Of a stretch of 64,000 nt of DNA, positions 32,376-60,957 are shown piece by piece. Under the pieces are notes generated by a model that saw only the letters and a list, made by a program, of their open reading frames with translations, was not told the origin of the DNA and did no database searches. Source of the stretch: Escherichia coli (GTDB lineage: Bacteria; Pseudomonadota; Gammaproteobacteria; Enterobacterales; Enterobacteriaceae). Positions within the stretch are counted from its first letter, which is position 1; every line of letters starts with the position of its first letter. Position numbers and translations under genes: made by a program. The stretch is taken from NCBI RefSeq assembly GCF_003334405.1, contig NZ_QOWM01000015.1. The stretch is one strand, 5' to 3'.

Positions 32376-33125
32376 AATCATTATTTACGTATCAGGAAGA
32401 GTTAAGGGTACAAGGGGTACTCGATGGCGGTCTATATTTCATGACTAACGCCATTTCAAGGAAGAAGTGCGGTGGGTGGTTTCGAATGAGGGCTGGTGTT
32501 TTGGTACGTGGCACGCCACTGCAATGTATTTATCCATCAGTACTCATTCAAAAGTACCTGGAAAAAATGCCTGCTATGCCAAGCGGGCAAATTGCTTACA
32601 TGTGGAATTAAGTAATTAACGATAAAGCCAGAGTATTATCATTTATTATACCCCTTCATTTAATCAGGTTAATTACTCAAATCACTGAACTATTCTCTGT
32701 TCGCTCACTGATGATAAGTGAGTACCACAACCAATGTATGTAGAACAATGCCGTAGAGTAAGGATGAAATGTCTCTGCCACGCCTTAAACATCTACTACT
32801 GACCAGAACACCCGCCGCAGGCAGATGAGTTTTGTGAGCGTTACAGGAGCGTGGCTATGCTCATTAACCAACGCTATTGAGATATAAATTTCTAACACTT
32901 GAAAAACGATTTTCACTAATAAATTATAACGGTTTTTTTTATCATACAGCGAAATAACCTTTTGTTTATTAAATTTAACATTCCTGTGCTAATTTAATTA
33001 AAAGTTCCATGCGTAGCAAGTGAAGCAGTTAATGTCAGTAATTGTCTCAAATGAGCGTTTTTTTATAGTGACAAACAGTAATAACATTAAAAATAGCCAT
33101 GTAGACATTAATTGAGGAATAGACA

Positions 33126-33608
33126 ATGTTAGTTAGTAAAAGCAACGGATTTAACGCTAGCGCAGTTTTGGGTAGTGGAAGTTATAATGAAAATAAATCT
33201 TCTAAACACATGGAGCTACTAGCTCATAGTATTTTAAAATTAATTTGTAAGGAAGCTGCATCAGAGACGTATCGCGGTGCTCTTGAAACTTTACAAAAAA
33301 TGATGTCTGAATGTATATATCAAGAAGGCAACGCCTTTGTCATTATGGGAGCTGGAGAACAATTAAAACGTATTAAATATGAAGTTGGTGAAAATAACTT
33401 AAAGGTATTCAACGTACACTTTAATAATAATCACGAGTTAGTTAGTTCTGGTGAGCCTGACGTAATATGTTTAAGCAAGCAGGTCTGGGAAAATCTTCTC
33501 ATTAAACTAAAGCTGGAAAACAATGAAAATGTGTTTTCTGAAACTAAAAAATTATCGAATAAAAATAATGCCGATCAGTTTTTTGAATGCGCTAAAAGAA
33601 ATGAATAG
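33126..33608 (+). CDS. hypothetical island protein (ypjC-like position)
   Basis: 160-aa AT-rich ORF directly after ileY; no recognisable domain. Confidence 0.5.
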   Translation: MLVSKSNGFNASAVLGSGSYNENKSSKHMELLAHSILKLICKEAASETYRGALETLQKMMSECIYQEGNAFVIMGAGEQLKRIKYEVGENNLKVFNVHFNNNHELVSSGEPDVICLSKQVWENLLIKLKLENNENVFSETKKLSNKNNADQFFECAKRNE

Positions 33609-33707
33609 AACCTTTTCGATAATATAAGAAAAAGTGATTTTCATGTTGGTTTACTTAAGCCAAGTAGTACGCGTAGTGTTATTTTAGAAACGCCGCCAAA
33701 TGTCTGT

Positions 33708-34499
33708 ATGGAATCACGTAATTCATATGAAAACAAAATAGATGAGATTTCATCTTTGTCAGAGTCAAAGGAACACCCCATAGATATTCAAGAAAAAAAA
33801 GATGCGTTTGTGAATGAGTTCAAGGGGGTATTATTTGATAAAAATACAAGGTCTTCAGAGCTTCTGTTTAATTTTTATGAGTGTTGCTATAAGTTTTTAC
33901 CAAGAGCTCAGCCTCAAGATAAAATCGATAGCTATAATTCAGCACTGCAAGCTTTTTCCATTTTTTGTTCATCTACGTTGACACATAATAATATAGGCTT
34001 TGATTTCAAATTATTTCCTGAAGTCAAGCTGTCTGGAGAACATCTTGAAACGGTATTCAAATACAAAAATGGCGATGATGTCCGGGAGATAGCCAAAATT
34101 AACATTACTCTCCAAAAAGAAGAGGGTGGTTTATATAATTTACGTGGATTGGATTTTAAGGGGTGCTTCTTTTCTGGACAGAACTTCAGTAACTATGATA
34201 TTCAATATGTGAACTGGGGAACGTCATTGTTTGATGTTGATACTCCGTGTATTTTTAATGCGCCTGCTTACAACAAGAGTAATGAAAAATCATTAAAACC
34301 TGTGAGCGAAAACGGTTTAAGTGGAGTATTGACTGATCGTAATAATAAAATAAAACTCATCACGGGCGTGGCACCATTCGATGATATTTTATTTATGGAT
34401 GATGACTTTGATGATAGTTCCTCTGAGGATGATCCCGTTGAGAATAGTCCTGTTGTGACTAGTCCCGTTGTATCAAGTTCTAAAAGCAGTTTTCAATGA
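33708..34499 (+). CDS. ypjB: hypothetical protein with acidic Ser/Pro/Val-rich C-terminus (tentatively YpjB)
   Basis: 263-aa ORF; size and position match my recollection of K-12 ypjB; no catalytic motif recognised. Confidence 0.5.
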   Translation: MESRNSYENKIDEISSLSESKEHPIDIQEKKDAFVNEFKGVLFDKNTRSSELLFNFYECCYKFLPRAQPQDKIDSYNSALQAFSIFCSSTLTHNNIGFDFKLFPEVKLSGEHLETVFKYKNGDDVREIAKINITLQKEEGGLYNLRGLDFKGCFFSGQNFSNYDIQYVNWGTSLFDVDTPCIFNAPAYNKSNEKSLKPVSENGLSGVLTDRNNKIKLITGVAPFDDILFMDDDFDDSSSEDDPVENSPVVTSPVVSSSKSSFQ

Positions 34500-34832
34500 T
34501 TAATAAATGGCAATTTTTACAAAGAGATAATAACGTAGATTGAAACAATATGTATTATTGATTGAGTAAACGGGATTATTCTTCACACTACATCCATTTT
34601 AGTGTCACTACCAAAGAAAAAGGGGCTACGTTTTCATGTAACCCCTTGATTTATTTGGTGGGCTGGCAGTGACTGAATTGGTGCTGTAATTGGTTGAAAT
34701 ATTTCATCTAATGTCTGGTTCAACTTTCCTTAGCTGCCTGAAAGTTTTTTGATCTTACCCAGCAATAACAGCGTTACGGTGCACCACGCCTGACTGAAGA
34801 ACTGCGTGCTCAGGGTTACCACTTCAACGTAA

Positions 34833-35071
34833 AACCGTGGCAGGAGGTCCGGACTGAAAAAACTGGTCAGGACATCATCGGCAGGGAACGCACTGCTAGT
34901 CTGTAAACTGAACCGACTGGGGCGCAGTATGTGGCATCTTGTCGTGCTGTTGGAGGAGCTGTGCGAACGTGGTATTAACTTTCGTGCTCTGGCCCAATCT
35001 ATATTTGCCCAACAATGGGGGGACGAATGCTGTAAAAGTAAAACAATCTGCGATCTCAAAGTTATTGTGTG
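34833..35071 (+). pseudogene. pinH: internal fragment of a Pin/Hin-type serine DNA invertase
   Basis: Translation ...[52 protein letters not shown]... aligns by eye to the central region of Pin (…[37 protein letters not shown]…); no N-terminal catalytic region or C-terminal HTH. Confidence 0.7.
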
Positions 35072-59198: not shown

Positions 59199-60428
59199 TT
59201 ATGCGGCAATAACTTTGTATTTTTGAGACGAAACATAGTCACTCCACCATTGCATGAGAACCACACGTTCTGTGAGATACTCTGCACGATTGTAGGCTGC
59301 AATTATTTCATCTTTTTTCGAGTGGGCAAGGGCGGCTTCTAAGACATCAGTTCTAAACTTGCCACACTCCTCAGCCGCCGTTCTAGCGATTGATCGCATA
59401 CCATGAGCTACAAGCTCACCTCCGAAGCCCATACGGATTATAGCCGCATTAGCTGTTTGTTCATGCATGTGATTGAGTGGAGCTTTGATACTGGGAAAAA
59501 CCCACTCTCTATGCCCGCTGATGGCTTTCATTGAATCCAAGACTCGCAAAGATTCTTTGCTCAGTGGAACTTTGTGAGGCTTCTTCATTTTCATAAACTC
59601 CGCCGGGATGTTCCACATGCTGGTTTCTATATCAATATCTGACCATCTTGTGCGAACAGCTTCACCAGGGCGAACCCATGTGAGAAGTTGCCACTCAATC
59701 AGTAGCCTTGTTTCTAAACGGATAGAAGCATTGTTTAGAGCAACCAGGAAGCGGGGGAGTTCGGAAGGGGGTAATGCTGGCATATTCTGTTTTTTTGGCT
59801 TGCTGAACCGTTGCCCCAGGTTGTCAGCCGGATTGAATTCTATGAGTTCTTCTGTTGCTGCATAGCGGAAAATTTCATTCAGGCGGGATATGACGCGGCG
59901 AAGTGTTTCAAGGACACCTCGTTTTTCTATGGGGTCTAAATGCTGTTTAAGCATTTTAGGGCGAATCTCCTTAATGGGGGTATCACCCAACGTTGGAAAG
60001 ATATTTCTCTCTAGGCTTCGCCAGATGTCGTTAGCATGATCCTGGGAGATGCCTGACGTTTTGACTTTCTCATCAAGCCACTTCTTGGCTACTGCTTGAA
60101 ATGTATGTTCCGTTGCATCCTTAAGGGCATTGGCTTTGTGGGTGTTATGAACTTGTGGGTCTATACCATTTGCAAGCAACGACAAGTACTCATCACGTAA
60201 AGCTCGTGCCTTCGCAAGTGTAAGGTGAGGATAGGTTCCTAAGCTCACCTTAGTTCGCTTTTTGGTCACAGGCACTGCATATCTGAAATACCAATTTTTC
60301 TTTCCTCCCTTCGCTAAGGGGGCGATTCGCAGGAGCAAACCATCGCCGTCAAAAAGGTTAACCTCTTTCTCGGCAGGTTTGGTGCTTTTGATTTCAGTGT
60401 CAGTGAGCTTCTTAGCGATTTTTGCCAT
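59199..60428 (-). CDS. intA: P4-type tyrosine integrase (IntA-like)
   Basis: ORF extends to 60572; probable start MAKIAKKLTDTEIKSTKPAEKEVNLFDGDGLLLRIAP…WYFRY at 60428 (409 aa); C-terminal catalytic region with …AHGMRS…; adjacent to the ssrA 3' end. Confidence 0.85.
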   Translation of the reverse strand: MAKIAKKLTDTEIKSTKPAEKEVNLFDGDGLLLRIAPLAKGGKKNWYFRYAVPVTKKRTKVSLGTYPHLTLAKARALRDEYLSLLANGIDPQVHNTHKANALKDATEHTFQAVAKKWLDEKVKTSGISQDHANDIWRSLERNIFPTLGDTPIKEIRPKMLKQHLDPIEKRGVLETLRRVISRLNEIFRYAATEELIEFNPADNLGQRFSKPKKQNMPALPPSELPRFLVALNNASIRLETRLLIEWQLLTWVRPGEAVRTRWSDIDIETSMWNIPAEFMKMKKPHKVPLSKESLRVLDSMKAISGHREWVFPSIKAPLNHMHEQTANAAIIRMGFGGELVAHGMRSIARTAAEECGKFRTDVLEAALAHSKKDEIIAAYNRAEYLTERVVLMQWWSDYVSSQKYKVIAA

Positions 60429-60430
60429 GT

Positions 60431-60469
60431 TTGGGACCCTCATGTTTTGGACCCTTTGTGTTGGGTCCC
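60431..60469. promoter_or_regulatory. three TTGGGACCC-like direct/inverted repeats between intA and ssrA (candidate integrase arm or operator sites)
   Basis: TTGGGACCC (60431-60439), TTTGGACCC (60446-60454), TTGGGTCCC (60461-60469) at ~15-bp spacing. Confidence 0.4.
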
Positions 60470-60594
60470 AAAAAGGGTGCCATAACGAGTAGATTCTAGC
60501 AATTCTCGGTAGACTACTATAGACGTAAAAAAGCCCGCAAGGCTGGTTCCATGCGGGCTTGATAGACTTCACTGAACTTCAATATATCAAAAAT

Positions 60595-60957
60595 TGGTGG
60601 AGCTGGCGGGAGTTGAACCCGCGTCCGAAATTCCTACATCCTCGGTACTACATGCTTAGTCAGTCTTTACATTCGCTTGCCAGCTGCGGACGGACACGCC
60701 ACTAACAAACTAGCCTGATTAAGTTTTAACGCTTCAACCCCAGGCAGGGCTTCCACGCGATCTCTTTTGGGTTTGACCTCTCTTGATCCCCGTCCTAAGA
60801 GCGGAGGCTAGGGAGAGAGGGCTCTAAGCAGGTTATTAAGCTGCTAAAGCGTAGTTTTCGTCGTTTGCGACTATTTTTTGCGGCTTTTTACGAGGCCAAC
60901 CGCCCCTCGGCATGCACCTTGGGTTTCGCAAATCCCGTCGAATCCAGAATCAGCCCC
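60595..60957 (-). ncRNA. ssrA: tmRNA (SsrA)
   Basis: Reverse complement runs from GGGGCTGATTCTGGATTCGACGGG… to …GTTCAACTCCCGCCAGCTCCACCA, 363 nt, including the tag-reading-frame region. Confidence 0.95.

Follow-up and report, generated by a model that had tools for sequence, protein, structure and literature searches.

A 20.4-kb island at the ssrA 3′ end of Escherichia coli, a probable integrative mobilizable element with candidate anti-phage cargo

Location and borders of the island

The gene for transfer-messenger RNA (tmRNA), ssrA, carries an island at its 3′ end in a 64,000-nt stretch of Escherichia coli DNA, which is referred to here as the window (contig NZ_QOWM01000015.1 of assembly GCF_003334405.1). 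The island is 20,443 bp long (40151–60593, all coordinates being positions in the window) and has the ssrA 3′ end at one border and a degenerate copy of that end at the other. It features a tyrosine integrase, an AlpA-like protein, a relaxase with a MobC-like partner, a candidate replication initiator, a large serine recombinase (LSR) that is encoded together with two ParB-like proteins, and a slot for defence genes. It is probably a plasmid-like integrative mobilizable element (IME) with candidate anti-phage cargo that site-specific recombination inserted into the ssrA 3′ end. The integration target and the two attachment (att) repeats are the following.

60595–60957, minus strand: ssrA (tmRNA), the integration target, intact (ARAGORN; Rfam RF00023, 295.8 bits, model positions 1–374 of 374)
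60594–60608: proximal att core, within the intact ssrA 3′ end; TTGGTGGAGCTGGCG
40151–40164: distal att repeat, psaA-type, TTGGTGG-GCTGGCG; the ssrA 3′-end copy minus one base (T357 position)

The distal repeat and the ssrA core form an imperfect direct repeat at both island borders. Local blastn against K-12 MG1655 revealed that identity ends at 40164 and starts again at 60527. Identity to K-12 is 99.96% in the segment 28165–40164 (ygaQ, ileY, ypjC/B, the pinH remnant, ypjA and the psaA pseudo-att) and 99.1% in the segment 60527–64000, from ssrA onward. The region between them, 40165–60526, gave zero blastn matches to K-12 CP4-57. A sequence-only reading of the window had proposed that the ssrA-proximal ~20 kb is unlike CP4-57, and this is borne out; a collinear CP4-57 alignment, which that reading had named beforehand as refuting evidence, was looked for by blastn and was not seen. 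The psaA core and the chromosomal left flank of the island are identical to those of K-12, where the annotated CP4-57 terminates at psaA, directly before ypjA. The island has a GC content of 36.9%, compared with 51.9% in the upstream core.

The extent of the insertion was determined with a predicted empty junction, built by removing 40151–60593 so that 40001–40150 joins 60594–60760, which was used as a query against 5,426 complete E. coli genomes. The junction is present in one piece in 2,528 of these genomes (47%), and the best matches are 100% identical across 317 nt. Because an empty junction of exactly this extent exists in 2,528 genomes, the insertion is 20,443 bp rather than ~28 kb. The sequence-only reading had described a single island of ~28 kb reaching from ileY to ssrA; the K-12 alignment and the empty site rule this out and reduce the island to 20.4 kb.

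Integration, mobilization and replication genes

The island encodes the following features for integration, mobilization and replication.

59199–60428, minus strand: P4-type tyrosine integrase (NF007246, 445 bits against a cutoff of 434)
41575–41781, plus strand: AlpA-family regulator, excisionase-like, 68 aa (phrog_66/2790, 'excisionase and transcriptional regulator')
47807–48214, minus strand: MobC-like relaxosome accessory protein (41% identity, E = 6e-20, to an annotated IncQ2 MobC), overlapping the relaxase start
46581–47810, minus strand: relaxase of the MobA/VirD2 type (PF03432, 1.7e-21; NCBIfam TraI_MobP, 3.6e-14; HxDx(n)HxH motif)
45337–46392, minus strand: three small exported or membrane proteins, two lipoproteins and one zinc-ribbon/transmembrane protein (lipobox sequences), downstream of the relaxase
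43167–43730, minus strand: winged helix-turn-helix (wHTH) replication-initiator candidate, 187 aa (Pfam: marginal HTH_36/Rep_O only)
44172–44305: three direct repeats with 49-bp spacing, iteron-like; core CTGTCA..AAATACGCTTCGCGCA

The integrase gene is located 166 nt from the ssrA 3′ end. The protein is full length, and the R...HxxR...H...Y positions are conserved in an alignment to IntA. Its identity is 49% with K-12 IntA and 48% with the integrase that a P4-like satellite carries at the same site. The AlpA-like protein is 36–37% identical to K-12 AlpA and 78% identical to the annotated AlpA in E. coli FDN-11 (L007).

The relaxase and its MobC-like partner are both present and intact. The N-terminal domain of the relaxase shares 43% identity with its counterpart in IncQ2 plasmids, typed MOBP by MOB-suite; the MobC-like protein has no Pfam match, and its assignment comes from the IncQ2 MobC. 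Within the relaxase gene, at ~46900–46930, a hexanucleotide tandem repeat encodes (Pro-Val)n, and its strain-dependent length results in proteins of 409, 411 or 421 aa. The three small exported or membrane proteins are found in the same order in FDN-11 (L007) and Citrobacter (L009), with 41–83% identity. No component of a type IV secretion system or mating-pair-formation apparatus was found in 40151–60593, where all open reading frames (ORFs) of at least 200 aa are accounted for. Nor is there an ORF with the size or annotation of TrbJ or TrbL, and profile scans (each island gene against one or more of Pfam, NCBIfam, PHROGs and PADLOC) gave no match to either protein. Phage structural and lysis families were likewise absent among the island proteins in PHROGs and the other family scans.

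Circular Klebsiella plasmids of 2.67 kb have a single sizeable ORF, with four 21–22-bp iterons just upstream of it, and the product of this ORF is 45–47% identical to the wHTH protein. Since its homologue is the sole ORF of iteron plasmids, a replication-initiator role for the wHTH protein is supported. The three 49-bp-spaced repeats are located ~440 bp upstream of the Rep candidate, inside a 1-kb non-coding gap, and are putative iterons; they differ in sequence and spacing from the four iterons of the homologous plasmids. Two database entries labelled as plasmids, OX345049 and OX345050, match Rep and relaxase at 67–70% and were not used as evidence for a free plasmid. OX345050 is a short linear contig tagged 'plasmid: 133' in a fragmented Salmonella assembly, and OX345049 is 3.7 kb long.

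The sequence-only reading had named a P4-type integrase abutting the tmRNA 3′ end, an AlpA regulator, a MobC/relaxase pair and a Rep-like HTH protein, and had noted the lack of recognisable phage structural or lysis genes; the alignments and family scans above agree with it on each of these.

Composite structure, the recombinase/ParB trio and the cargo slot

The remaining part of the island, between the integrase and the MobC-like gene, contains an operon of three genes and a slot of exchangeable cargo.

55581–58922, minus strand: three-gene operon, with a serine recombinase (57360–58922) and two ParB_N+RepB_C proteins (56474–57370 and 55581–56477) (Pfam)
55401–55512: IS3-family transposase remnant (RefSeq annotation from strain MRE162), at the place where relatives carry a decayed int fragment
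51509–54528, plus strand: NACHT + RelA/SpoT cassette, overlapping genes for proteins of 704 aa and 301 aa
50406–50678, minus strand: DUF4928 type II restriction endonuclease (REase) remnant, the C-terminal 88 aa (PADLOC REase_II, 1e-40, profile positions 214–301 of 331)
48416–49824, minus strand: ankyrin-repeat protein and a 146-aa protein, function unassigned (RefSeq annotation; weak PDC-M72A match)

A conserved gene order was found in relatives from E. coli EC21Z-078, FDN-11 and E400634, Enterobacter vonholyi and Citrobacter sp. It runs Int, serine recombinase, ParB2, ParB1, cargo, MobC-like protein, relaxase and three small membrane proteins, followed further on by AlpA. Across these loci, in Enterobacter and Citrobacter as well as in E. 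coli, the recombinase and ParB genes have 95–98% identity, whereas that of the relaxase is only 50–64%. The 95–98% identity of this backbone in three genera therefore indicates recent horizontal spread. Homology of the block formed by Int and the trio stops at 55530–55535 in every relative. Beyond the end of the block, FDN-11 and Enterobacter have a decayed int fragment (codons ~314–409) with the same stop codons in both, in Citrobacter (L009) the fragment is shorter and more divergent, and in E400634 a partial integrase is annotated there. The GC content is uneven, with 32.6% in the trio, 35.3% in the cargo, 46.5% in the mob region and 45.8% in int. The island is thus a mosaic, as had been proposed, in both its composite structure and its GC content: a block of Int, serine recombinase and two ParB/RepB genes is fused to an older mob/rep/AlpA element, and the decayed 3′ int fragment of the relatives is all that is left of the older element's own integrase. 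The most likely origin is a tandem integration of an Int + trio element at ssrA beside an older IME, followed by a deletion that would have removed the inner att and most of the integrase of the older element. In FDN-11 (L007 2851–8004) the Rep region is replaced by two tyrosine integrases followed by hypothetical proteins of 668 aa and 132 aa, and this four-gene cluster may be a separate recombinase-driven element.

The serine recombinase is a 520-aa protein with Resolvase and Recombinase domains, and its nearest solved relatives are integrase/transposase-type LSRs, namely TP901-1 Int, SPbeta SprA and TnpX. Both ParB-like proteins feature ParB_N and a RepB C-terminal domain, and ParB2 aligns with Spo0J, Noc and KorB. 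The ParB-like pair had been listed as cargo. The genes are there, but they are not loose cargo: they form a backbone operon with the large serine recombinase, which had been overlooked. As part of the family backbone, the trio is always located at the edge of the exchangeable defence-cargo slot. Orthologous trios in the same order were found on plasmids of Piscinibacter, Agrobacterium and Paraburkholderia (alpha- and beta-proteobacteria; L015 3471–6876, L016 4574–7900 and L023 4502–7879), with 42–46% identity for the recombinase and 31–39% for the ParB proteins. In two of these three distant contexts tniABQ adjoins the trio, which would correspond to a Tn5053-type transposon with the trio in the tniR position; the third is a plasmid with its own Rep and ParA, and tniABQ is never a neighbour in E. 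coli. A contig scan with ParB1 peptide patterns, which reach close relatives only, returned two loci. PADLOC made no system call for the serine recombinase or ParB2, and no description of the trio was found in the searched literature. A perfect palindrome, TAAAATT-GATCA-AATTTTA (58956–58974), is located ~35 nt upstream of the recombinase start and could be an operator or a ParB-binding site.

It is conceivable, and put forward only tentatively, that the trio is an undescribed functional module of mobile elements as different as the ssrA islands of E. coli and plasmids of alpha- and beta-proteobacteria. For example, two CTP-clamp-like ParB paralogues could determine which site an integrase-type recombinase uses or in which direction it acts; alternatively, the trio could both resolve and segregate island circles after excision. 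The best guess is that it would help to maintain or recombine the excised circle.

Upstream of the MobC-like gene, the cargo slot separates the mob genes from the trio block. Its contents differ in each relative and are rich in defence genes.

EC21Z-078: type I restriction-modification
FDN-11 and E400634: Hxs system and TIGR04141
Enterobacter: SIR2-like PDC-S25 and an sce7725/7726 pair
Citrobacter: PDC-M71A/B

IMEs have been reported to be enriched in defence systems, which are located near the origin of transfer (oriT) or leading region (10.64898/2026.01.13.699239), and the position of the slot upstream of the MobC-like gene agrees with this clustering. The island family exchanges cargo in a fixed slot, each variant having a different candidate or known defence system. 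In the window, RefSeq annotation and family scans confirm the ankyrin protein and the NACHT/RelA-SpoT pair that had been read from the sequence. The DUF4928 remnant is annotated as partial and is decayed cargo.

The 704-aa protein, which RefSeq names NACHT domain-containing protein, features NA-iREase2 (PF22723, 3e-33), a weak NACHT match (E = 0.008) and pentapeptide repeats. Its 301-aa partner is a RelA/SpoT-type nucleotidyltransferase (PF04607, 5e-14). Overlapping pairs of a NACHT protein (~705 aa) and a RelA/SpoT protein (~295 aa) recur in V. parahaemolyticus and P. aeruginosa (L017–L022) in unrelated neighbourhoods, the RelA/SpoT protein being 53–55% identical. The pair is a conserved mobile cassette, and some of the P. 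aeruginosa copies are located beside Abi_2, DUF3987 and an integrase. NA-iREase2-NACHT and RelA/SpoT may form a two-gene anti-phage system with a separate alarmone-synthetase-like effector; no experimental test of this architecture was found in the searched literature. The NACHT gene is not intact in every carrier: in some, such as Z1323CEC0007 (L004 14548–16652), it is broken into two ORFs of 1,050 and 999 nt.

The tmRNA locus has been described as hotspot #9, with prophages, P4-like satellites, IMEs and transposons (Hochhauser et al. 2023, PMC10121019), and the published mix of prophages, satellites and IMEs was also found here, in tandem arrays. Among the 5,426 genomes, at least 80% of the whole island is covered in 56, with 99.8–99.9% identity in the best 30 listed, and at least 80% of CP4-57 is covered in 362. 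One collinear copy of the island is in strain MRE162, whose RefSeq annotation was mapped onto the window, and NCTC9100 is a further carrier. In roughly 590 genomes the best match to the island query reaches at least 95% identity, mostly within the block of Int and the trio. The block of Int, serine recombinase and two ParB genes alone (~54.8–60.6 kb) is found at ~97% identity in several hundred genomes, including the BL21-type C43(DE3), where the block is truncated by IS1. The mob/rep part is found in other genomes at ~85% identity. In Z1323CEC0007 (L004) a P4-like satellite is inserted in tandem between ssrA and the island. This satellite (L004 23650–34030) looks complete, with a primase-helicase, Icd-like, ogr/delta, psu and 'glycoprotein 3'/sid-like genes and its own integrase. 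In E. coli MS1665 a P2-like prophage is stacked between ssrA and another, short ssrA island. The short island (L011 15973–19441) features a 78%-identity integrase, an ATP-binding protein and a 'response regulator receiver domain' protein, and the latter two genes may be another defence pair. As a landing pad, ssrA is empty in about half of E. coli and otherwise holds prophages, satellites and mobilizable islands, which are often stacked.

The features that lie next to the distal border, inside and outside of the island, are the following.

40447–41292, plus strand: DUF6387 protein at the distal island end (PF19924, 4e-79)
32376–40150: ileY-ypjC-ypjB-pinH remnant-ypjA segment, K-12-like, outside the insertion
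34655–34731: fossil CP4-57-type right end (74% over 77 nt to K-12 psaA and the CP4-57 end)

The ileY tRNA (anticodon CAU) is located at 32300–32375. That the ileY-proximal part (ypjC/ypjB/pinH/ypjA) resembles K-12 had been recognised, and the identity given above confirms it. The ypjA gene had also been counted, as an adhesin, among the cargo of the island, and this is refuted since ypjA is beside an empty ssrA site in 47% of genomes. The segment from ileY to ypjA is covered to at least 80% in 2,550 of the 5,426 genomes, directly adjoins the empty ssrA site in the 2,528 genomes with the empty junction, and belongs to the normal chromosome of about half of E. coli strains. Because it adjoins an empty site elsewhere, neither ypjA nor ypjC/ypjB/pinH is cargo of the island. 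The fossil right end, which K-12 has as well, sits between the pinH remnant and ypjA and features the same degenerate att core (TTGGTGGGCTGGCAGTGACTGAATTGG...). It thus marks an earlier accretion at ssrA, shared with K-12, from which the ypjA segment was left behind.

Nature of the element and comparison with known systems

An IME has its own integration module and flanking att repeats at a specific site, and the island features the integrase, the AlpA-like protein, the repeats and an empty counterpart of the site. Its gene set is, to judge from sequence, that of an IME built from a small mobilizable plasmid. The sequence-only reading had also suggested an integrative mobilizable element; the gene set fits this proposal and the 28-kb extent was wrong. 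In the proposed mechanism, the integrase, probably controlled or helped by the AlpA-like protein, would recombine the ssrA core with the psaA-type repeat and release the island as a circle. The wHTH Rep candidate and the nearby repeats may allow the circle to replicate. The MobC-like protein and the MOBP-type relaxase would nick a putative oriT and pass the DNA to the mating machinery that a conjugative element in the same cell provides, and in the recipient the integrase would put the island back at ssrA.

There are several observations that weigh against a mobile element, and most of them would also be expected if the island were a decayed, immobile remnant that is maintained by vertical descent and by homologous recombination of its flanks, with mobility genes that are relics or have been co-opted. 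This alternative is the strongest competitor and is judged rather unlikely. The distal att is degenerate and matches the ssrA core by 7 + 8 nt only, with a 1-nt gap between. The AlpA-like protein derives from the older module, whose cognate integrase is gone, so that its teaming with the present integrase is putative. The oriT/nic site was sought with RP4, R64, RSF1010 and ColE1-type motifs, which gave scattered matches only, and a comparison of the regions upstream of the MobC-like gene (window, L007, L008, L009, L013 and an IncQ2 plasmid) gave scattered 8-mers only. This upstream region is not conserved in the relative compared, and an inverted repeat in it, GGTATACC-N-GTATACC at ~48330–48360, is not conserved either. 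No helper element was recognised for the island, and no PADLOC model matches the NACHT protein. Signs of decay are the IS3 and DUF4928 restriction-enzyme remnants within the island and the split NACHT gene, which shows that the cargo is decaying in part of the population; additionally, many relatives are truncated by IS1, IS2 or IS3. All E. coli matches to the island query are chromosomal with none on plasmids, and the full-length copies whose context was inspected are all at ssrA, a pattern that fits vertical inheritance as well as site-specific reintegration. However, Int, the AlpA-like protein, the Rep candidate, the MobC-like protein, the relaxase, the serine recombinase and both ParB genes are full-length ORFs, and these proteins are 100% identical in the two other full-length carriers examined, the repeat length of the relaxase excepted. 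An att pair of similar quality suffices for the excision of CP4-57 in K-12 (PMC10107115), and the 95–98% backbone identity in Enterobacter and Citrobacter speaks for recent transfer between genera.

The remaining alternatives concern the origin of the parts. It has been considered that the trio is a separate small element, which its own serine recombinase inserted into the 3′ region of the island int and which provided int with a surrogate 3′ end. The trio end is fixed at 55530–55535 in every relative, in L007, L008, L009 and E400634 its neighbours are a decayed int fragment at one end and, at the other, the intact 3′ end of int, its recombinase is related to integrase/transposase-type LSRs, and it occurs as a unit in unrelated plasmid contexts. 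An insertion of this type predicts a break in int at codon ~314, yet in FDN-11 (L007) the homology of the upstream int copy starts at codon ~225 and continues across codon 314 without a break, and other int genes align straight through this point. Furthermore, the distant trios have no neighbouring integrase genes and there are no terminal repeats that join the two trio ends. The insertion was rejected on the missing break and is kept as a minor, quite improbable rival. A variant of CP4-57, or a P4-like satellite that is moved by a helper phage, would share the att site, the integrase family and an AlpA-like gene with the island. Such an origin is highly improbable and is ruled out by gene content: there is no DNA similarity to CP4-57; the primase-helicase, psu, delta, sid and cos-related genes that are present in the Z1323CEC0007 satellite are missing; and the island has a relaxase/MobC pair instead of phage structural or lysis families.

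As an IME with defence cargo, the island belongs with the IMEs of the tmRNA hotspot (PMC10121019), which share its site, its class (integrase and relaxase, no conjugation apparatus) and the presence of defence cargo. These elements are already documented and the island is therefore no new kind of element. The published work catalogues the hotspot islands by type only, and no description of the backbone of this island (Int, serine recombinase, two ParB/RepB proteins, slot, MobC/relaxase, Rep and AlpA) was found in the searchable literature.

K-12 CP4-57 is likewise located at the ssrA 3′ end with a psaA repeat that has a 1-nt deletion, features IntA/AlpA families and carries defence or toxin-antitoxin cargo. 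It differs in having no relaxase/MobC pair, Rep candidate, serine recombinase or ParB proteins, and its interior has no nucleotide similarity to the island. The collinear order of CP4-57 (intA-yfjH...rnlAB...ypjF) is absent from the island, and Int (49%) and AlpA (36–37%) are the only protein-level matches. AlpA-induced excision of CP4-57 is reported to leave ssrA without T357, which inactivates tmRNA (PMC10107115), and the base that is lost from ssrA is exactly the base that is absent from psaA. Because its psaA and flank are identical to those of CP4-57, excision of the island could likewise inactivate tmRNA. The 1-nt-deleted core is found in all four distal or inner att copies, which are the psaA of the window, the psaA of K-12, the inner junction of Z1323CEC0007 (L004 ~23622–23645) and the fossil at 34655, and the ssrA copies are intact at occupied and empty sites alike. 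The crossover position is not deducible from this comparison of att copies, and the pattern is not reconciled with the reported ssrA ΔT357.

The relaxase domain (43%) and MobC (41%) connect the island to small mobilizable plasmids of the IncQ2 type. The IncQ2 plasmids and the 2.7-kb iteron plasmids of Klebsiella are free, whereas the mob and rep modules of the island are chromosomal and under an integrase. For the cargo, the closest comparison is with bacterial NACHT (bNACHT) anti-phage proteins (Kibby et al., bioRxiv 10.1101/2022.07.19.500537), which likewise feature a STAND/NACHT core, an N-terminal NACHT-associated domain and a C-terminal repeat sensor. A NACHT NTPase module with effector and sensor parts is found here in the domains of the 704-aa protein and its coupled RelA/SpoT partner, and alarmone synthetases have been listed among the effector classes associated with NACHT. 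Unlike in bNACHT proteins, the N-terminal REase-like domain of the island protein is from a family named 'inactive', and the likely effector is the separate, translationally coupled RelA/SpoT protein. This cassette and the serine recombinase/ParB trio are the parts of the island without a described function and are candidates for new biology.

PIMEs (Pseudomonadota integrative mobilizable elements) are elements for which helper-induced excision, replication and transfer were shown experimentally to depend on Int, AlpA and Rep (bioRxiv 10.64898/2026.01.12.698999). Like the island, they feature modular int, alpA, replicase and mobilization genes together with a large accessory region that is rich in immune systems. 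PIMEs were delimited as elements in which trbJ and trbL are found together with int, alpA and a replicase, and because the island has neither trbJ nor trbL it is outside the PIME family as defined. No serine recombinase/ParB trio has been described for PIMEs. Int and AlpA are present in the island and its replicase is a candidate by plasmid homology only. By analogy, PIMEs are the best functional counterpart of the island, which probably works like one.

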